A stretch of 64,000 nucleotides of DNA from a virus (Duplodnaviria > Caudoviricetes), in IMG/VR virus record IMGVR_UViG_2706795248_000001, positions 3,618 through 67,617 of that record; one strand, written 5' to 3'. The translations under genes were made by a program, and so were the position numbers. The notes beneath the pieces are model-generated. The model was not told the DNA's origin, made no database searches, and was given only the letters and a program-made list of their open reading frames with translations. Each line of letters starts with the position of its first letter. Within the stretch, counting starts at the first letter, position 1. Positions 2,826-56,775 of the stretch are shown here, piece by piece.

Positions 2826-4553
2826 ATGAGGGTCGAGTACCCGGCGGTCGAGGATGACGACGTCACGTACCCGACGCTCGGGCCGCAGGTCGCTGCGTTC
2901 ATCGAGAGCCGGTTTACCTATGGACCGGGATCGCTTCAGGGACAACCGGCCCGACTCACTGACGACCAGCGACGGGTGCTCTACCGAGCGTACGAGCACT
3001 TCCCGAAGGGCTACCGGCTCTACGGGATGGACATGTCCGGCCGACGCCGGTTCACCCGCGTCTCGTGGTCGGTGCGCAAGGGCTCGGCCAAGACCGAGTT
3101 CATGGCCTGGGTCACCGCGTGCGAGCTGCACCCCGAGTCGCCGGTCCGGTTCAACGGCTACATCGGAGACATCACCGACGAGCAGCGGGACCAGTGGGAC
3201 GACGAAGAGTTCGAGCGCTACCAGAAGTTCGGGCTCGCTCCCGGCCGAGCGGTGAACAACCCCTACATCCCGCTGCTGGCCTACACCAAGGACCAGACCG
3301 AGGAGCTGGCCTTCGGCGCCCTGCGTTCGATCCTGGAGACCACCGAGGACGCCGACCGTCTCTTCGACATCGGCAAGCAGCGAATCATCCGGAAGAACGA
3401 GTACGGCGCCGAGGACGGCAAGTGCCATGCGCTGGCGGGCAACCCGAACTCGGCCGACGGCGCGCGCACCACCTTCCAGGGCCTCGACGAGACCCACCGT
3501 CTCTACACCGAGACCCACCGCAACGCCATCGAGACGATGCTCCAGAACCTCCCGAAGCGGCCGATGGAGGACCCCTGGCAGCTCGCGATCACCACCGCGG
3601 GCGAGCCCGGCCAGGGCTCCTACGCCGAGGACGAATACCGCGAGGGTGTGGCGTGCGCGGAGGGCAAGAAGAAGTCCGAGGGGTTCTACTTCCTGCACCG
3701 ACAGGCGCCGGACGGCTCGAAATTCGACACCATGCAGCAGCGCATGGAGGCCATCTGGTGGGCCACCTCGCCGTCGGTGCGCGAGTGGACCCGCTTCGAT
3801 TCGATTGCAGCGAACTGGGATCGCGAGGGAGCCGACCGGCAGTACCTCGAACGGGTGTGGACCAACCGCTGGACGCAGACCGCATCGCAGGCCTTCGACC
3901 GCGACGAGTTCGAGGCGCTCGGCGACCCGCGGCTCACGATCCCGGACGGCGCGTTTGTCACGGTTGGCTTCGACGGGGCAAAGTTCCAGGACTCAACGGG
4001 TTTCGTGATCACCGACATCCTGACCGGCCGACAGAACGTGGTCGGATTCTGGGAGCGCCCGGACGACAGCGAGATCGAGCGCGACGCCGACGGCAAGAAG
4101 ATCAAATGGCAGGTCCCCGAGATCGAGGTCAACCAGACCTTCGAGGACATCATGACCCGGTTCAAGGTATGGCGGTTCTACGGTGATCCGCCGCACTGGG
4201 TCGAGTCGATGGGCAACTGGCACGCGAAGTACCCCGACCAGGTCTACGAGTTCTGGACCAAGGACCCGACCCGAATGTACTACGCGGTCAAGGGGTATCG
4301 CAGCGCGATCTCCAGCGGGGCCGTGTCGCACAACGGGGACCCGGATCTGGTCCGGCACATCGGCAACGCAGGCAAGCGCACCACCCGCGGCGAGGACGAG
4401 GACGGCCAGCCGCGCTTCGTCCTGACGAAGATCGCCTACGAGCGCAAGTTCGACCTCGCGATGGCGGCGATCCTATCCTGGGAGGCGCGGATGGACGCGA
4501 TCAACGAAGGGGCGACGGCGCCGGTCGAGACCGCTATCATCCGGGTTCGATGA
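2826..4553 (+). CDS. terL: Terminase large subunit
   Basis: Walker A-like VRKGSAKTE, Walker B GLDETH, AITTAG motif, RNaseH-like VGFDGA...D...KFDLAMA; start MRVEY after GGGGAGG. Confidence 0.95.
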   Translation: MRVEYPAVEDDDVTYPTLGPQVAAFIESRFTYGPGSLQGQPARLTDDQRRVLYRAYEHFPKGYRLYGMDMSGRRRFTRVSWSVRKGSAKTEFMAWVTACELHPESPVRFNGYIGDITDEQRDQWDDEEFERYQKFGLAPGRAVNNPYIPLLAYTKDQTEELAFGALRSILETTEDADRLFDIGKQRIIRKNEYGAEDGKCHALAGNPNSADGARTTFQGLDETHRLYTETHRNAIETMLQNLPKRPMEDPWQLAITTAGEPGQGSYAEDEYREGVACAEGKKKSEGFYFLHRQAPDGSKFDTMQQRMEAIWWATSPSVREWTRFDSIAANWDREGADRQYLERVWTNRWTQTASQAFDRDEFEALGDPRLTIPDGAFVTVGFDGAKFQDSTGFVITDILTGRQNVVGFWERPDDSEIERDADGKKIKWQVPEIEVNQTFEDIMTRFKVWRFYGDPPHWVESMGNWHAKYPDQVYEFWTKDPTRMYYAVKGYRSAISSGAVSHNGDPDLVRHIGNAGKRTTRGEDEDGQPRFVLTKIAYERKFDLAMAAILSWEARMDAINEGATAPVETAIIRVR

Positions 4554-46820: not shown

Positions 46821-47001
46821 GTGCCTGTTCAGGGGCCGGTTTTTCGACCATCCATCGGCGCGACATGCCCGTCTGGTGGCACTTGTCGCACCCCTTGCCC
46901 GGCCGGTACCCCATCACGGTGAATACCGTGACGTCGATGAGGGCACCGGCATGACCGCAGTTCGAGCACTGGCCGTGCGGAACGAAGACGAGGTCGTCCA
47001 T
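46795..47001 (-). CDS. Zn-ribbon microprotein
   Basis: CSNC...CDKC; TGATG overlap. Confidence 0.7.
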   Translation of the reverse strand: MDDLVFVPHGQCSNCGHAGALIDVTVFTVMGYRPGKGCDKCHQTGMSRRWMVEKPAPEQALDQLTSTD

Positions 47002-47126
47002 CAGGCGTGGAAGTAATGGTTCGGGCTGACGGCGTAGTAGATCGTCGGCACCCAGAACACCATCCAGCCGAACAGCAGGTGCTTGGTCAGGGAGTGACCG
47101 GTCTGGACTCGGGTGTAGTTGCTCAT
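47001..47126 (-). CDS. 41-aa membrane microprotein (MSNYTRVQTGHSLTKHLLFGWMVFWVPTIYYAVSPNHYFHA)
   Basis: Translated by hand; ATGA and TGATG overlaps; resembles a recurrent actinophage small-protein family (from memory). Confidence 0.8.
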   Translation of the reverse strand: MSNYTRVQTGHSLTKHLLFGWMVFWVPTIYYAVSPNHYFHA

Positions 47127-47596
47127 CGCGGCTGCTCCGATTGGGTTCCGTGGTTCTGGTTATCGACCAGGCGATCCTCGGTGACGAAGATCCGATCGAG
47201 CGTGACCTGGCTGCCGTAGAGGGTGACCAGGTCGTAATGCCGGAACGAGTACTCCTCGGCTGCACCGGCGCCGACGTTGACGTGGACCTCCCCGCCGTCG
47301 ATGCTGATCTGGCGCAGCTCGGCGATCACGATCTTGACCGACATCCCGTCGTCACCGAAGCGCTTCGGGAAGCGGACGTACCGGCCGATGTCGCGGGCCA
47401 TCAGCTCGCAGGCGTAGACCTGGATGCAGAGGTCGCCGAGCGACTTCGGGGGCTCCTGGCGCGCGACCCACCCTCCCTGGGAGATCGTCGCCGCGGCGAT
47501 CGTGACGGTCTCTTTCGGATCTTCGAGGTTGTCCATCATGTTGAGCTCGTCGGCCATCCGGTCCTGGTCGGCCTTCTTCTTGCGTGCGGTGCCCAT
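47123..47596 (-). CDS. Hypothetical protein
   Basis: Coupled ORF. Confidence 0.75.
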   Translation of the reverse strand: MGTARKKKADQDRMADELNMMDNLEDPKETVTIAAATISQGGWVARQEPPKSLGDLCIQVYACELMARDIGRYVRFPKRFGDDGMSVKIVIAELRQISIDGGEVHVNVGAGAAEEYSFRHYDLVTLYGSQVTLDRIFVTEDRLVDNQNHGTQSEQPR

Positions 47597-48075
47597 CAGT
47601 CATTGCTCCAATCGGGGTCTTGCTCGGGGACTTCGCTATCGGGGATGTATCGAACCGGCTCTCCGATGGCGTGCGGGGCGATTCGCCAAGTTGCCCCGGA
47701 GAGAGATAGGTGTTTGTTCAGCACGCCGATCTTCGCCAGGGCTGCGAGTCGGCCATACGCCACTGACTCGGTGACTCCCATCGCCCGTGCTGCTTGCTTC
47801 GTGGTCATCTCTTCCCGGTCCGACGATTCGACGATCGAGTAGGTAGAGAACTGCCCGTCGGTCAGAGCCTGGAGTTCTCGACCGTGGTCATCAGTGATTC
47901 CAAGAGCGAAAGGCCTTCTTCTCCGCTTTGACGCGTGCCTTCTTCGGCTCGGTATCTCCTGTTGTGGCTCCGGGGGAGCCGGGTCCACTGATGCTCCGGG
48001 GGAGCACTTCGAGAGGAACTCTGCGATCTCCGCAGGAGTGCCGGTCAGGGTCATTCCCCGGTAGACGGCCTCCAT
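47596..48075 (-). CDS. Winged-HTH-like DNA-binding protein
   Basis: MTTKQAARAMGVTESVAYGRLAALAKIGVL. Confidence 0.7.
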   Translation of the reverse strand: MEAVYRGMTLTGTPAEIAEFLSKCSPGASVDPAPPEPQQEIPSRRRHASKRRRRPFALGITDDHGRELQALTDGQFSTYSIVESSDREEMTTKQAARAMGVTESVAYGRLAALAKIGVLNKHLSLSGATWRIAPHAIGEPVRYIPDSEVPEQDPDWSND

Positions 48076-48078
48076 GGG

Positions 48079-49104
48079 TTATCCGATCTTCTTGATGCGG
48101 CAGACGGCGACCGAGCGGAAACCGCCGCCGACCTGGAGGAAGTGCAGGATGCGCAGGTCTTCCCCGTGCTCCTCGGGATCGAACTCCGCGGGAGTGATGT
48201 GCGGCGGGTACTTGCCGCCGTCGCCGTCGACGATCGCGCGGTCCAGCGAGCCCGAGAGCGCGTTGAGCCAGACGACCTCGACGCGGTTGTTGGTCTTGCG
48301 ATTGACCCCGAGCTTGGTGAGGATCTCCGCGGAGGTCAGCGGGGACGCGAACCCCGACCAGTTGCGGCTGGGGTTGGCCTGCTGGCTGCGCACCGCGGCG
48401 TAGGTGTCTTGCTGGCTCCACGTCGGGTGAACCGCGTCCTTCGGCTTCGCCTTCTCGGCGGCGGCCTGGTGCGCCTGCGCCTCGTCGGCGATCGCACGAG
48501 CCTCGACCTCGGGGACCATGCCGACGTGCTCGGGGACCGTCTTGCCGACGGTGGGCGGCACATCGTCTTCGATGGGCATGATCGCCTCCATCTCCTCGCT
48601 CGGGAGATGGTCGCCCTCGGTATGGGCGGCACTATGGGCGGCACTCTCGCTGTCGCTGTCCGTATGGGCGGCATCAGTGGGCGGCACGTCCGTATGGGCG
48701 GCACTATGGGCGGCACTGGTGGGCGGCACTGCGTCACTGTCGACGGCGTCCGGTGCCGACTCGGGCTCGTTGTCCTCGGGCTGCGGGTCGCCCGGCTGGA
48801 TGATGTGGAAGTCGTTCTCGATCTGCTCGCGCACGTCGCCGCTCTCGGGGTCCAGCACGCGCGCGTCGCCGTTGGGATCGGTGTAGGTGACCTGGTCGCT
48901 GTCGGCGTCCGGGTCGACCGCGTAGAAGGCCTTCAGCTCCTCGACGCCGATCGAGCCGAGATCGCGGCGCAGAAGGACGAACGCGAACTTCTTGTTCGTC
49001 TTCGGGTGGCCCTTAGCCGGGCTCCAGCCGTACTTCTGCGCGTGCTCGGTGATCTGCTTGGCCAGATCGAGGGCATCCTGCTGAGCTTCGCTCAACTCGG
49101 GCAT
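48079..49104 (-). CDS. Hypothetical protein, first gene of the leftward arm, with internal repeat array
   Basis: SD AAGGAG; AAHSAAHT / VPPT repeats. Confidence 0.85.
   Translation of the reverse strand: MPELSEAQQDALDLAKQITEHAQKYGWSPAKGHPKTNKKFAFVLLRRDLGSIGVEELKAFYAVDPDADSDQVTYTDPNGDARVLDPESGDVREQIENDFHIIQPGDPQPEDNEPESAPDAVDSDAVPPTSAAHSAAHTDVPPTDAAHTDSDSESAAHSAAHTEGDHLPSEEMEAIMPIEDDVPPTVGKTVPEHVGMVPEVEARAIADEAQAHQAAAEKAKPKDAVHPTWSQQDTYAAVRSQQANPSRNWSGFASPLTSAEILTKLGVNRKTNNRVEVVWLNALSGSLDRAIVDGDGGKYPPHITPAEFDPEEHGEDLRILHFLQVGGGFRSVAVCRIKKIG
48552..48728. repeat. Eight copies of TGGGCGGCA
   Basis: Copies start at 48552, 48623, 48635, 48665, 48678, 48695, 48707, 48720. Confidence 0.9.
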
Positions 49105-49162
49105 GTTGCTCCTTAAATATGTTGTTACTTAATGCATTTCATCACATCAGCGGATTTCGGCC

Positions 49163-49186
49163 GTACTCGCTTACTCGCGTACTCGG
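49163..49186. repeat. Three tandem 8-mers (G/T)TACTCG(C/G)
   Basis: GTACTCGC TTACTCGC GTACTCGG. Confidence 0.7.
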
Positions 49187-49262
49187 GGTACCGGCGGCGG
49201 GTGGTGCGGGGTGCGCGCGGGTCGGTCGGCACGGGGTCGGGCTGGGGTGTCGTGCGCGCGTG

Positions 49263-49319
49263 TCGAACTCCTGTTCGATCCGGGGGATCGAAAGTCTGTT
49301 CGATCGAAACTGTGTTCGA
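49263..49319. promoter_or_regulatory. Three actinobacterial LexA (SOS) boxes
   Basis: TCGAAC-TCCT-GTTCGA (49263-49278), TCGAAA-GTCT-GTTCGA (49288-49303), TCGAAA-CTGT-GTTCGA (49304-49319). Confidence 0.85.
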
Positions 49320-49600
49320 TTGGGTCCCGATTCTGTCCGGCCGGTTGCCCGTTCGCGCTGTGCCGCGCGAGCGCCGTATCGGGTACCCGGCGCGCTCACC
49401 CTGTCGCCGTGTGGTGCGCGTGTCTCGCGCTCCCGTGTCCGCTGTTGACTTGTCGAAGAACCTGCGCCGTTCGGCGCGATACGTGAACTGTACCCGTTAC
49501 CGGGCAACCGGCGCAACTCCGGCCGGTCGGCCGGTGTCGGTGTCGCCGTGTGTCCTGCTCATGTCCACACCGTACACACGTGCGCCGGTTGTCGCCAAAC

Positions 49601-49629
49601 TTGCGAACTAAGGCCGTAGCGCTTACTGT
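49601..49629 (+). promoter_or_regulatory. Rightward promoter TTGCGA-17-TACTGT
   Basis: Canonical spacing, upstream of 49675. Confidence 0.65.
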
Positions 49630-49674
49630 GACCTCACCGGCCGCACACGGCGCCGGTCCGATGAAAGGCCCACC

Positions 49675-50556
49675 ATGGCAACGATCCCCGCTCTTACGCT
49701 CGACGCGATCCCTCACGCCGACGCGCTCACGTACGACGACGTCGAACTGCGCGACCGGTACCCGGACAACGGTCCCGCTGTTCGCGCATTCCGTGTCACC
49801 GGTCGCCGGGTGTCCGGTGTCCTCACCGCTCGGGTCGGGTTGTCCGGCGCCGGTGCGCCGACTCACCGGGTCGACGAACCGGCGACCGGTCACCGCGGAA
49901 TGCAGGACCTCCCCATGGCGTCGTACCCGTCGGTGTCGCTCACGTTCGGGCCGCGCGCAGCGGGCAAGTTCCTCAACGTCGACGGGCATGACGCGATGTA
50001 CCCGGACCCGTTCACCGTGAACGGCCGCGCCTACTACGGGTTGCCCTCGTCGGTGACCTTCCACCCGGTCGACGTGCGCGCGCTCTACGGCGACGACGTC
50101 GACACGTCCCCGGTCGGGATCACGACGTCGAGCGCGTGGCACGGGATGACGGCCGACGAGGCTCGAAAGAGGTTGGCGCCGATCATCCATCAGGCAGGGG
50201 CACACGGGTATCTGTTCGCGAACAACGTCCCCGGGACCGACGGCCGGACGGCGTCCGGCGTATTCGAGTCGGACACCGATAGCTGGACTTACGGGACCAC
50301 CGATTCGGCGCGCGCGATCGTTCGCGCGATCGGGATCGACGTGCTGCGGATCCTGCTCGACGACGGCGTCGAGAACGATTGGTGGGACCTGATCGCCGAC
50401 GACGTCGCACGGGACCGCGACAAGGCACTCGCGGCCGCGCAGCGCTACATGGCCGTCGTCGAGGGTCACCGGGACACGCTGCGCCGGATCTCGACGGCCG
50501 CGCTCATGTCCACCGCGCCGACCGGCGGCGTCGAGGTTGTCGAGGTGACCCGATGA
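49675..50556 (+). CDS. Hypothetical protein
   Basis: 293-aa ORF behind a promoter. Confidence 0.8.
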   Translation: MATIPALTLDAIPHADALTYDDVELRDRYPDNGPAVRAFRVTGRRVSGVLTARVGLSGAGAPTHRVDEPATGHRGMQDLPMASYPSVSLTFGPRAAGKFLNVDGHDAMYPDPFTVNGRAYYGLPSSVTFHPVDVRALYGDDVDTSPVGITTSSAWHGMTADEARKRLAPIIHQAGAHGYLFANNVPGTDGRTASGVFESDTDSWTYGTTDSARAIVRAIGIDVLRILLDDGVENDWWDLIADDVARDRDKALAAAQRYMAVVEGHRDTLRRISTAALMSTAPTGGVEVVEVTR

Positions 50557-50948
50557 CCCTCACCCTCGACGCGCGCGTGATGACCGGCGCGCTGATGATC
50601 GACGTCGAGAGCGTCGGCGACACGGTCGCCACGCTCACCGCGGCCGGGTACGTCTGGCAAGTGATCGCCGATGCCGACGACACCGGCGCCGACCGGGTGC
50701 GCGTCGTGTGCCACGGTCGCCGGGTGTCGCGATTGTTCGACCGATGGCAGTACCCGCGCGCCGACGTGTGGTCGGCCGTCGGCGTCGCCGGTGTCCGGGT
50801 GCTCACCGGCGCGCAGCGCGTCGCGGTCGATCTCACCCCGGCCGGACCCGGCGCCGTATCGTTCCGCGGCCGTCGACCGCTCCCGGACGCCGAACGTCAC
50901 GCCGTCGAGAGCGCAGCGCGGCACTACGTCGTCACGGATCTCGACTAA
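50553..50948 (+). CDS. Hypothetical protein
   Basis: ATGA overlap. Confidence 0.7.
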   Translation: MTLTLDARVMTGALMIDVESVGDTVATLTAAGYVWQVIADADDTGADRVRVVCHGRRVSRLFDRWQYPRADVWSAVGVAGVRVLTGAQRVAVDLTPAGPGAVSFRGRRPLPDAERHAVESAARHYVVTDLD

Positions 50949-50983
50949 CCCTCACTCCCCTACTGACGGAACAGGATCGGACG

Positions 50984-51277
50984 ATGACAGTTACGAAACT
51001 CCCCACCGGCGCGTATGTCGGGATCGACGACGATGACCGCGCCGGCCGGATCGCCTATCTGGAGCGGCCGCGGGACCCGCGCGAGAACGGCGACCACTAC
51101 CGGACACCGGCCGGGTACGCGCGCTGTTACCGGTGCGAGAACAGCGCGACCCGGTTTGCCTATCTCGCGATTAGCTCACTGACACCGGTGTGCGCCGATC
51201 ACCTCGCGCTGCTCGTCGTCGAGCGGGACCGTTGCGGGTCGACCGTCGAACGTATCCAAACCACCGAACACAACTGA
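50984..51277 (+). CDS. Hypothetical protein with CxxC...C-x-x-H motif
   Basis: SD AGGA; CYRC...CADH. Confidence 0.7.
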   Translation: MTVTKLPTGAYVGIDDDDRAGRIAYLERPRDPRENGDHYRTPAGYARCYRCENSATRFAYLAISSLTPVCADHLALLVVERDRCGSTVERIQTTEHN

Positions 51278-51295
51278 GAGACAGGACAACTCATC

Positions 51296-52054
51296 ATGGG
51301 CACATATCCCACTATTCGCGAACAGCGCGTTATTGACCACGTCAACGCGACACGTCTCGGGAGCGTTTCGGACGACGGGCTATTGCAGCTCACCGACATC
51401 GGTTACGACGACGACAACGGCGCCGTGAGCGTCACCGTGCGGGAGTTGATCGGGCACAACGGGTGGACCTGCTCGAAACGATCGCTCGACAAGCGTATGC
51501 GCCGGTTCGCTGCGCGCTGCTCGGGATACGGGGAGCGCGCGCGGGTGTCGGTCGAGCGTCGGTGGATCGCCTACGGGTGCGACAACGTGACCTATACCGT
51601 CACCCGACCGACGACGACGACACCCGGGGAGCGCTCCCGCGCGCGGGTCGACGCGATGTTTCTCGACGCCGGGTGGCGCAGCGCGGCAAGCGACAAGCCT
51701 GGACACCCCGACGTCTACGCACGGGACACCCGCAACGGCGGTCCCCGTGCCATGGTGCAGATATACCGGGACCCGGCGCGGGGGAGGGTGACCGGCGCGA
51801 CGCTGTTCGATGACGACGGCCGCGCGTACCCGTTCCCGTCTCACGGGACGCTGCGCGCGGTGAGCGCGTACCTGCTCGGGTACCGGTGGGAGGTCACGAC
51901 GTACAACGGCGCCGTTCCGACGTTCGGGACCCGTTACGGGCCGTCGGGAACGATTGTGTTCCCGACCGAACGCGCAGCGCGGGAACACTTCAAGCGTGTC
52001 AACAGGGAACATGCGGCGACCGTGCGCCGGGTACCTCCCGCGCAGCGCGGATAG
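51296..52054 (+). CDS. Hypothetical protein
   Basis: SD AGGA, 252 aa. Confidence 0.75.
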   Translation: MGTYPTIREQRVIDHVNATRLGSVSDDGLLQLTDIGYDDDNGAVSVTVRELIGHNGWTCSKRSLDKRMRRFAARCSGYGERARVSVERRWIAYGCDNVTYTVTRPTTTTPGERSRARVDAMFLDAGWRSAASDKPGHPDVYARDTRNGGPRAMVQIYRDPARGRVTGATLFDDDGRAYPFPSHGTLRAVSAYLLGYRWEVTTYNGAVPTFGTRYGPSGTIVFPTERAAREHFKRVNREHAATVRRVPPAQRG

Positions 52055-56017: not shown

Positions 56018-56027
56018 CGCCGCGTAC
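56018..56027 (+). other. Candidate cos 3' overhang CGCCGCGTAC (physical genome end)
   Basis: Upstream ACCCCCGGGGGT palindrome and C-rich tract, downstream TG..., directly before HNH-terS; matches my recollection of a Gordonia cluster CR overhang (unverified). Confidence 0.6.
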
Positions 56028-56076
56028 TGTCCTCGAACGCCTGTGCGAGTCTGGGGGTAAACTCGTATATGTTTTC

Positions 56077-56085
56077 TGCTACAGT
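56077..56085 (+). promoter_or_regulatory. Extended -10 TG-c-TACAGT, 6 nt before GTG 56092 (leaderless)
   Basis: Read directly. Confidence 0.6.
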
Positions 56086-56091
56086 CTGCTC

Positions 56092-56775
56092 GTGAAATGC
56101 GAGAATTGTGGCTGCATCTTCGCTGGTCGCAAGCGAAAATTCTGCTCCGGGCAATGCCGAGAAGCCTTCCATAATCGGGACTGGAGGTCCAAGAGGCCCC
56201 CTCGTCAGAGGGAGGGCGATTACGTCCGAGGAGTCCCTCGATCAAAGCAATGCTCTTCATGCTCAAAACCCTTCTCTCCGAACAGCTCTCGGCAAAAATA
56301 CTGTTCCCGAGAATGCCGACCCAGGCCGATCAAGAAGCCGGTCATGACCAAGCAGTGCCCCGAGTGTGAAACCGTCTTCAAGACCTCCCGGGATCGACAG
56401 ACCTGCTCAAATCGCTGTGCCATGCGGCGTCGCTACAGGGAGAAACCCCAGGTAGTGGCGCAAAAGGTTCGGGCCTGGGAGGTCGCCAATCGGGACTCCC
56501 ATCGCATCCGGCAAGCAGAGCGCTGTGACCGCCGGAGAAGGGCCATTGTGGGCTCGGTGTCCACCCGGGACTGGAAAAGGGCTCTCCGTCGCGCTCAGGG
56601 CCGCTGCGCTTACTGCCAGTGCAGGTCCACCAGGCTTACGATCGACCATGTGGTCCCTATCTCTCGCGGAGGCAGGCACACGATCGGCAACGTCATCCCG
56701 GCCTGCCCCCGCTGCAACTACCAGAAGAAAAACAAGACCGTCATGGAGTGGCGGATCTGGAAGGAGTCCCGATAA
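56092..56775 (+). CDS. HNH endonuclease with three N-terminal Zn-finger repeats
   Basis: Three CxxC...CSxxC repeats; CAYC...DHVVPISRGGRHTIGNVIPACPRCNYQK. Confidence 0.9.
   Translation: MKCENCGCIFAGRKRKFCSGQCREAFHNRDWRSKRPPRQREGDYVRGVPRSKQCSSCSKPFSPNSSRQKYCSRECRPRPIKKPVMTKQCPECETVFKTSRDRQTCSNRCAMRRRYREKPQVVAQKVRAWEVANRDSHRIRQAERCDRRRRAIVGSVSTRDWKRALRRAQGRCAYCQCRSTRLTIDHVVPISRGGRHTIGNVIPACPRCNYQKKNKTVMEWRIWKESR

Follow-up and report, generated by a model that had tools for sequence, protein, structure and literature searches.

The window analyzed here is a 64,000-nucleotide stretch of viral DNA with a G+C content of 65.9%, corresponding to bases 3618–67617 of a complete record of 67,617 bp. 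Three 16-bp sites that match the LexA (SOS) box of actinobacteria are located at 49263–49319. They occupy a 570-bp gap between the first gene of the leftward arm, an open reading frame (ORF) of 341 aa (48079–49104, minus strand, phrog_12059), and the first gene of the rightward arm, an ORF of 293 aa (49675–50556, plus strand, phrog_26936). Downstream of the 341-aa gene, an HTH protein and an SNF2-type helicase are encoded, followed by the remaining replication genes; a weak HTH_20 match was found in 47596–48075. Searches of Pfam, PHROGs, and the protein atlas placed the flanking genes only in families without an assigned function and gave no usable look-alike.

The array region was approximately 84% identical to that of Gordonia terrae phages of the genus Foxborovirus (Zierdtviridae, Emilbogenvirinae), and the phage is a cluster-CR Gordonia siphophage, probably GTE8. 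Gordonia phage GTE8 belongs to subcluster CR2 (PMC5559632) and was judged "obligatory lytic" with a broad host range (PMC4524720); LexA or SOS is mentioned in neither paper. Provided that the identity with GTE8 holds, the window phage would be obligately lytic. Neither tyrosine nor serine integrase domains were found in the complete record, which bears out an earlier description of the phage as integrase-less (hereafter, the preliminary description). LexA (TIGR00498) was not found in the complete record either, and no LexA-type DNA-binding domain was detected in the phage even at E ≤ 1.

The gene order of the relative Tracker was used for orientation. Its genes 1–51 are rightward and comprise small unknown genes followed by packaging, virion, and lysis genes. 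Genes 52–77 are leftward and include primase/polymerase/helicase functions, two WhiB-type proteins, an HTH protein, and a RuvC-like resolvase, as well as a DnaE-like polymerase, a thioredoxin, a Cas4-family exonuclease, and a helicase. Genes 78–92 are again rightward and are annotated as unknown throughout. Together with the ORFs of the window, this annotation agrees with the placement of the array between a leftward replication arm and a rightward arm. By reading of the annotation, Tracker has no repressor, integrase, or partition gene. The carrier or pseudolysogenic state that had been proposed for the phage found no support in the sequence, and no partition or maintenance genes are among the Tracker annotations.

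Box 1 (49263–49278, TCGAACTCCTGTTCGA) is the perfect palindromic consensus TCGAAC-N4-GTTCGA and has an aligned counterpart in all ten aligned phages. Nine bases separate it from box 2 (49288–49303, TCGAAAGTCTGTTCGA), which has A at position 6, and box 3 (49304–49319, TCGAAACTGTGTTCGA) directly abuts box 2 in a 16-bp register. Boxes 2 and 3 depart from the consensus at position 6 only, and all three boxes share the 3' end TGTTCGA. The 16-bp imperfect palindrome of the actinobacterial SOS box is thus present in the array, and the three boxes lie exactly where the preliminary description had placed them. The pattern TCGAAM-N4-GTTCGA gave four strand-matches in the window, every one inside the array, and none outside the array in the complete 67,617-bp record; the pattern searches of both agree with the earlier remark that the window holds no other perfect box. 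In dinucleotide shuffles, a mean of 0.09 matches per window was expected, against three sites observed in 57 bp, and four matches were reached in 0 of 100 shuffles. These figures argue against the array being a product of chance or a neutral relic with no present function.

When up to three mismatches were allowed, no further degenerate boxes that could serve as looping partners near the promoters were found in 49050–49720. A second, single LexA-like box with one mismatch was located at 56033–56048 (plus strand, TCGAACGCCTGTGCGA; the whole element spans 56025–56048). It is the only other site in the window at one mismatch or fewer, and the sole further good site when two are allowed. The box begins 2 nt past a −10-like hexamer, TACTGT, and lies upstream of an HNH endonuclease ORF (56092–56775); Flapper, GTE5, and Turuncu have a box at the homologous position. 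A single box abutting TACTGT before the HNH gene suggests that LexA may act as a regulator of phage genes.

The motif TCGAAC(N4)GTTCGA is the SOS box of M. tuberculosis, defined by mutagenesis and confirmed by ChIP-seq (PMC3381160). The mycobacterial LexA consensus had therefore been recognized correctly, and the same motif was found at lexA and recA of Gordonia. The host genus was assigned as Gordonia by 16S primer matches, not by genome names. The Gordonia-specific primer G1096R (PMC9786905) matched one of the 401 sampled genomes of the order. Six genomes marked as unpublished were part of this sample; none of them matched, and they enter no other result. Both primers were exact and 829 bp apart in that genus (G268F in 5/5 and G1096R in 6/6 genomes tested, the five for G268F being complete or near-complete).

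The site TCGAAC-N4-GTTTGA was present 125–318 bp upstream of the lexA match in all 15 Gordonia genomes, and a second lexA-upstream site, TCGATC-N4-GTTCGA, in eight of them. A box with at most one mismatch was found upstream of recA in 11/15 genomes. Core SOS genes of the host genus are accordingly preceded by the motif of the array. The position-6 variant TCGAAW-N4-GTTCGA occurred 2–17 times per Gordonia genome versus 0 for the reversed control pattern. Some of these sites were intergenic, with DUF222 genes and a conserved HEPN/GNAT pair among their neighbors; DUF222 is presumably the domain of the REP13E12 repeat family, tied to the M. tuberculosis LexA regulon.

All lexA and recA operators of Gordonia had at least one mismatch to the palindromic consensus, and perfect palindromic boxes numbered 0–1 per Gordonia genome (five genomes, 3.7–5.3 Mb). 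Cluster-CR phage genomes (64–69 kb) contained 1–3 perfect boxes each, and the phage boxes were closer to the consensus than nearly all host sites. This difference lends some weight to the titration that the preliminary description had offered as its second option. By this account the array would not regulate phage genes; instead, the 3–4 near-consensus sites, multiplied to hundreds of copies by genome replication, would act as a LexA sponge and outcompete the weaker host operators. Host SOS functions would be switched on as a result (RecA and recombination, repair polymerases, a division block) and would aid the phage. The mismatches in the lexA and recA operators and the scarcity of perfect boxes in host genomes are both in line with titration, and its remaining evidence concerns number and placement of the boxes (see below).

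Conservation was examined by reading the same intergenic region in 17 distinct cluster-CR phages of five named genera: this window, Tracker, Arti, Emianna, Commandaria, NosilaM, Kabluna, Buggaboo, Skysand, Lollipop1437, IDyn, Marietta, a Sukkupi-like record, GTE5, one more record, Flapper, and Turuncu. All 17 had three or four boxes (55 in total; Skysand is one with four), and in all 17 the final pair abutted in the 16-bp register. Pleakley, a more distant Gordonia phage, had one perfect box at the equivalent place, which brought the set to 56 boxes with 23 distinct sequences. In these 56 boxes, positions 2–5, 11, 12, 14, and 15 were invariant, position 6 was C, A, or T, and the four spacer positions varied freely. 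Mean identity of the surrounding intergenic alignment (ten phages) was 60%. As the 17 phages are related, their counts are not independent, and the 23 distinct boxes with their variable spacers are the better measure of selection. Half-site conservation with a free spacer in orthologous regions, a mark of SOS boxes, was found here, and purifying selection on exactly the LexA-contact positions is, judging by the alignment, strong. Half-site positions that stay fixed across 23 distinct boxes while spacers and flanks diverge leave chance or a neutral relic with a practically negligible probability.

No LexA boxes were present in the Rhodococcus phages Maselop, MacGully, and ChewyVIII, which belong to the same family and have the same genome layout. 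Since Pleakley has a single box and these relatives have none, the array is a lineage-specific addition and not part of the basic architecture. Conservation in related phages, which the preliminary description had left for checking, therefore holds throughout the 17 cluster-CR phages and fades beyond them.

One feature of the boxes is not symmetric: position 6 in the left half-site varies, but position 11, which mirrors it, is fixed. Such an asymmetry is not predicted by a symmetric LexA dimer alone and fits either an added directional constraint or a phage-encoded binder with LexA-like specificity, for which host LexA would be irrelevant or a mere competitor. Candidates for such a binder exist among the HTH and WhiB-type proteins of the leftward arm (the weak HTH_20 match in 47596–48075; Tracker genes 56, 73, and 54), and phage regulators often bind repeated palindromes in early control regions. 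The asymmetry is partly due to shared ancestry, however, because the 16-mer of box 2, TCGAAAGTCTGTTCGA, recurs identically in eight phages (the window, NosilaM, Kabluna, Commandaria, GTE5, Buggaboo, Flapper, and Turuncu). Nothing would keep a private operator from drifting, yet the boxes hold the host consensus over five named genera, and the phage lacks a LexA-like DNA-binding domain. The repeated palindrome of the phage itself is apparently a different one, TTGACGTCAA, found at the promoters. With the abutting layout also being the same as in bacterial lexA-region operators, a phage-encoded binder seems distinctly unlikely.

The layout was searched for in one representative genome each of 185,579 species. 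Abutting double boxes were found at ten loci, all of them in Actinomycetota. In Geodermatophilus the double box lies between lexA and a divergent LysM-domain gene, an arrangement that presumably resembles that of Rv2719c/chiZ, and in Microlunatus flavus it lies beside lexA. At other actinomycetotal loci it clusters with one or two more SOS-type boxes, including ones that resemble lexA operators, and Nocardioides and related MAGs share the abutting 16-bp register. As far as sequence comparison goes, this distribution identifies the abutting arrangement as one found naturally in LexA operators. The chromosomal SOS operators of actinobacteria have the identical 16-bp motif and register but are near gene starts and usually imperfect, whereas those of the phage match better, are present in larger number, and lie at a distance from a gene start.

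Taken together, the identity with the host motif, the selection on contact positions, the natural abutting layout, and the lack of a LexA-like protein in the phage make it quite probable that host LexA binds the array.

Among 2.9 million IMG/VR contigs, box pairs within 30 nt were found in approximately 90. The abutting pair was present in 15 contigs, of which 11 belonged to this phage group and four to unrelated low-G+C metagenomic viruses. In an unrelated metagenomic virus of 49% G+C, four boxes lie right beside three to four 24-bp iterons. This neighborhood is consistent with an origin-linked or architectural role, in which array-bound LexA would organize or license a nearby origin or insulate it from transcription. 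Candidate origin features are also close to the array in the window, at the head of the replication arm. Direct repeats containing GTAC (GTACTCG, TTACTCG, GTACTCG, and GGTACC; 49163–49192) lie between the boxes and the leftward gene. They are followed by an AT-rich stretch (49105–49150, minus strand) just upstream of that gene, which stands out in a 66% G+C genome and includes the ribosome-binding site AAGGAG. The AT-rich stretch may contain a proximal promoter or be a region that melts easily; weak promoter-like matches were found in it in six of ten phages. The Rhodococcus Zierdtviridae without boxes retain both the GTAC repeats and the AT-rich stretch, so the presumed origin has no need for LexA. 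LexA is not known to us to act as a replication factor in any system, and an origin role is considered very unlikely.

Promoters were predicted by scanning for −35/−10 pairs with relaxed actinobacterial criteria and mapping the hits onto the ten-phage alignment; they are predictions supported by conservation. A look-up of public sequencing runs, RNA included, for 47000–52000 listed none. The rightward promoter P_R (49601–49629, plus strand, TTGCGA-17 nt-TACTGT) is located about 45 bp before the first rightward gene. Its −10 hexamer TACTGT was invariant in 10/10 aligned phages, and the element was present in all 17. Two leftward promoters were predicted on the minus strand. P_L1 (49598 to 49569, TTGGCG-18 nt-TACGGT, with the −10 at 49569–49574) was found in 11/17 phages. 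In relatives, it stands back to back with P_R, and the two share the palindrome TTGACGTCAA, one half of which is the −35 of P_L1. P_L2 extends from 49516 to 49487 (−35 TTGCGC at 49516–49511, 18 nt, −10 TACAGT at 49492–49487), which puts the boxes at about +161 to +217 relative to it. These three predicted promoters account for three of the only four TTGNNN-17/18-TACNGT matches in the window.

The geometry was conserved. Each of the 17 phages has at least one predicted leftward element (TTGNNN-17/18-TACA[GT]T) 129–217 bp to the right of the array that is directed across the boxes, and in 11/17 a second one is present 252–335 bp from the array. Predicted P_R lies 290–385 bp to the right in all 17 and is directed away from the boxes. 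No comparable conserved promoter-like element overlapped the array or lay to the left of it in the 17 phages. The array is thus at about +160 to +300 of the predicted leftward transcripts, and approximately 160 bp separate it from the gene that opens the replication arm.

LexA operators normally overlap a promoter or a start site, and an operator 160–300 nt downstream of a promoter is unusual; by the predicted promoters, the array neither overlaps nor adjoins a regulated promoter or start. The preliminary description had called the region a divergent control region. The gap does divide the two arms, but the boxes overlap no conserved promoter and P_R is some 300 bp off. Similarly, the proposal that host LexA gates phage transcription would hold in so far as the predicted P_L1 and P_L2 are directed through the boxes, but not for both arms as from a divergent operator. 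Because P_R points away from the array and the leftward elements point through it, any effect of LexA in cis would be limited to the leftward arm, as a downstream operator or roadblock.

Other contents of the leader were considered as well. A generic scan for sigma-70 promoters and terminators in 48900–49900, spanning leader and array, found nothing, and 48900–49800 had no Rfam match. A conserved RNA fold in the leader (RNAalifold, 49320–49486, minus strand, eight phages) was rejected: the covariation term was positive, with almost no compensatory changes. The conserved blocks of the leader are explained in part by the predicted promoter hexamers that lie there. A small ORF across the boxes was also rejected, as single-base indels between close relatives break every frame; such an ORF is annotated inconsistently (Tracker 78, Emianna 79/80, Kabluna 81/82, IDyn 73 on the opposite strand, and GTE5 Orf67).

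The conserved geometry, with predicted leftward promoters pointing through the array and P_R pointing away, favors a transcriptional roadblock. In this reading, the three boxes would be genuine high-affinity sites for host LexA, kept by selection across the cluster-CR Gordonia phages. They would lie in a long untranslated leader that runs from one or two conserved leftward SigA-type promoters to the first gene of the replication and recombination arm. In an undamaged cell, LexA dimers would occupy the array, the abutting pair probably cooperatively, and the filled array would stop or strongly cut read-through by RNA polymerase from P_L1 and P_L2, leaving the rightward arm driven by P_R unaffected. 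Read-through would increase once LexA is lost, either by cleavage (following DNA damage in the host or an activation of RecA set off by infection) or in some other way. The replication module would in this way be timed or accelerated by the SOS state of the host. One pay-off could be a built-in delay, in which right-arm genes are expressed before replication and the block is relieved once RecA has been activated by infection or damage; another could be a faster programme in damaged cells.

We put the probability at roughly 0.45 that array-bound LexA keeps RNA polymerase from reading into the replication arm before SOS relieves the block. Repressors that act as roadblocks downstream of a promoter include CcpA or CodY in Bacillus and PurR at purB. 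The array shares with them an operator within the (predicted) transcribed leader and a need for high occupancy. Several near-consensus boxes suit this mechanism, since very tight binding at several sites is required for a roadblock but not for promoter occlusion. To our knowledge, LexA has not been reported to act as a roadblock, and we know of none documented at 160–300 nt; here this action is inferred from the geometry. Strong promoters are able to push through roadblocks, and transcription from the candidate proximal promoter in the AT-rich stretch could escape a block at the array. Lawns need not be damaged for cluster-CR phages to form plaques on them, so any block must leak or be lifted in the course of infection. 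The relatives also weigh against a roadblock: the Rhodococcus phages do without boxes and Pleakley manages with one.

Many high-quality sites fit the sponge and the roadblock equally. Titration would also account for multiple tandem sites that overlap no promoter and whose number is held at 3–4 across genera. The placement of a sponge is in principle free, yet the array is fixed in place and in orientation relative to the leftward promoters. The effect of a sponge would come late, after many genome copies have been made, and transcription across the array would tend to strip LexA from it. With 3–5 sites per genome only, and with Pleakley's single box making a poor sponge, we regard titration as unlikely; no natural precedent for a LexA sponge is known to us. 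Whether through a roadblock or by titration, the phage probably reads or manipulates the SOS state of its host, as far as can be read from the sequence.

Host LexA boxes in phages are already known. A review-style passage names GIL01, CTXphi, 186, and SPC32H-type phages as users of LexA, and every one of these is temperate (PMC9437464). The use of host LexA by GIL01 and CTXphi, which the preliminary description had cited, agrees with the literature (PMC4551915, PMC6182141, PMC9437464). In the Bacillus tectivirus GIL01, dinBox1/1b lie in P1 and gp7 is the co-repressor; 186 employs tum, and SPC32H-type phages employ antirepressor control. The window phage resembles these temperate switches in having host LexA boxes in a phage control region, adjacent boxes as in P1 of GIL01, no CI-type repressor of its own, and RecA-stimulated LexA cleavage as the presumed signal (PMC4551915, PMC6182141, PMC9437464). 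It differs from them apparently in life style and, as judged by the predicted promoters, in operator position. The listed phages are temperate (integrated, plasmid-like, or filamentous) and LexA keeps them dormant, whereas the window phage has no integrase. Their boxes overlap the regulated promoter, whereas those of the array are 130–300 bp downstream of predicted promoters.

Among virulent phages that use host regulators, only Spo0A (phi29) and CtrA are listed (PMC9437464). Like phi29 and the CtrA phages of Alphaproteobacteria, for which the term "lytic deferment" is used (PMC9437464), the cluster-CR lineage appears to combine a virulent life style with several conserved sites for a host global regulator at early transcription units. 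The presumed use is also shared, namely an infection programme tuned to the physiological state of the host. Unlike in these phages, the regulator is LexA and responds to DNA damage rather than to sporulation or the cell cycle, and the sites form one compact leader array instead of being spread over several promoters. The expected direction is reversed as well, with stress releasing expression instead of suspending it.

A full-text search of the literature on LexA with Gordonia phages, actinobacteriophages, and virulent phages returned nothing on the array, and an actinobacterial tectivirus scan reported no LexA sites (PMC6950372). The transcriptome of the Rhodococcus phage WC1 was set aside as a comparison, as it concerns an unrelated temperate cluster. 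What appears to be new here is the occurrence of host LexA boxes in a lytic lineage and their arrangement as a tandem array downstream of predicted promoters.

The wider reading, to which we give about even odds, is that an entire obligately lytic lineage of actinobacteriophages has recruited the SOS repressor. Its tandem "super-operator", superior to the operators of the host itself, would serve as a roadblock in the leader of the replication operon or as a sponge, by which the phage senses or rewires the DNA-damage response. If true, LexA would here be co-opted for the first time beyond temperate elements, the cases in the surveyed literature being confined to temperate elements that leave dormancy, and would for the first time act as a roadblock or sponge. 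The system is unusually testable: teaching-lab collections include the host Gordonia terrae 3612 as well as dozens of cluster-CR phages that have been sequenced and carry one, three, or four boxes, and recombineering methods exist for actinobacteriophages. The geometry of the array offers a natural test for LexA as an elongation roadblock. Where these phages are applied to control Gordonia foams in activated sludge, DNA-damaging conditions could alter the kinetics of infection. Lytic phages that rely on master regulators of the host are few (phi29 with Spo0A, and the CtrA phages), and the array would add to them. Its conservation in a lytic lineage would demonstrate that virulent phages, too, monitor or interfere with the SOS response of their hosts.

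The coordinates of the phage record (67,617 bp; G+C content of the window 65.9%) begin at the packaging genes, and its numbering is permuted relative to that of the SEA-PHAGES relatives. The divergent promoter region of most relatives contained the palindrome TTGACGTCAA (columns 665–690 of the phage alignment A1; ~1900–1915 in the NosilaM locus L007), the two halves of which are the −35 hexamers of the predicted divergent promoters P_R (rightward) and P_L1 (leftward). The more distant phage Pleakley has three copies of it in this region. The window retains a decayed version of the palindrome, TTGTCGCCAA, and here P_R has a new −35 hexamer, TTGCGA, 11 bp further along.

Sequence-conserved blocks at 49320–49480 are not accounted for by promoters, ORFs, or RNA folds. 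Among these blocks are two copies of CACGGCGA, a hairpin-like TCGCGC-N6-GCGCGA on the minus strand, and the palindrome GCGCCG-TT-CGGCGC (49462–49475). Immediately upstream of the first leftward gene, GTAC-containing direct repeats were found at 49163–49192. Such repeats are kept throughout Zierdtviridae, including the Rhodococcus phages that have no LexA boxes; the repeat is present in ~20 copies in ChewyVIII (L179, ~1300–1600), and direct repeats of this type were also seen in locus L178 (~1700–1760). A phage-encoded activator or origin-binding protein is the candidate ligand of these repeats.

Perfect palindromic SOS boxes numbered 0–1 per chromosome in the Gordonia genomes G144, G409, G410, G411, and G414. 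The last of these had 17 TCGAAW-N4-GTTCGA sites, several of them sharing identical spacers, which suggests a repeated element, putatively LexA-controlled. Among 185,579 species genomes, abutting pairs were restricted to ten Actinomycetota loci (L014–L023; e.g., L018:4749–4845), where SOS boxes are clustered 3–4 together with such a pair included. In Geodermatophilus, the cluster separates lexA from a divergent LysM-domain gene; in Microlunatus flavus, it adjoins lexA, and equivalent clusters were found in Nocardioides and several MAGs. LexA-type arrays of 2–4 boxes were also observed in viral contigs unrelated to the window phage, namely in metagenomic viruses of 49% G+C (L030:2000–2300; L028:3385–3450) and in a contig of 36% G+C (L032:191–249 and 4186–4217). 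At L030, the array of four boxes comes immediately after 24-bp direct repeats (GATCAGAACTTAGTTCAGCTAACG; three to four copies), which look like replicon iterons.

In Flapper, Turuncu, Lollipop1437, and Skysand, an additional perfect box (L029:1879, L035:2172, L036:3680, and L038:1749) lies within the leftward arm, ~3 kb from its start, and seems to fall in a coding region; its spacer varies by genus (AGGT vs AGAC), and the window has no counterpart of this box. On the plus strand at 56025–56775, a −10-like hexamer, TACTGT, is followed after 2 nt by a one-mismatch LexA box, 5′ of an HNH endonuclease ORF (56092–56775; phrog_1271, E = 6e-38), and the leader between box and ORF is moderately AT-rich. 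At the homologous site in Flapper, GTE5, and Turuncu, the box TCGAATATGCGTTCGA precedes an AT-rich stretch with the palindrome TTGAAACGTTTCAA. The HNH ORF of the window may encode an SOS-responsive homing-type endonuclease.
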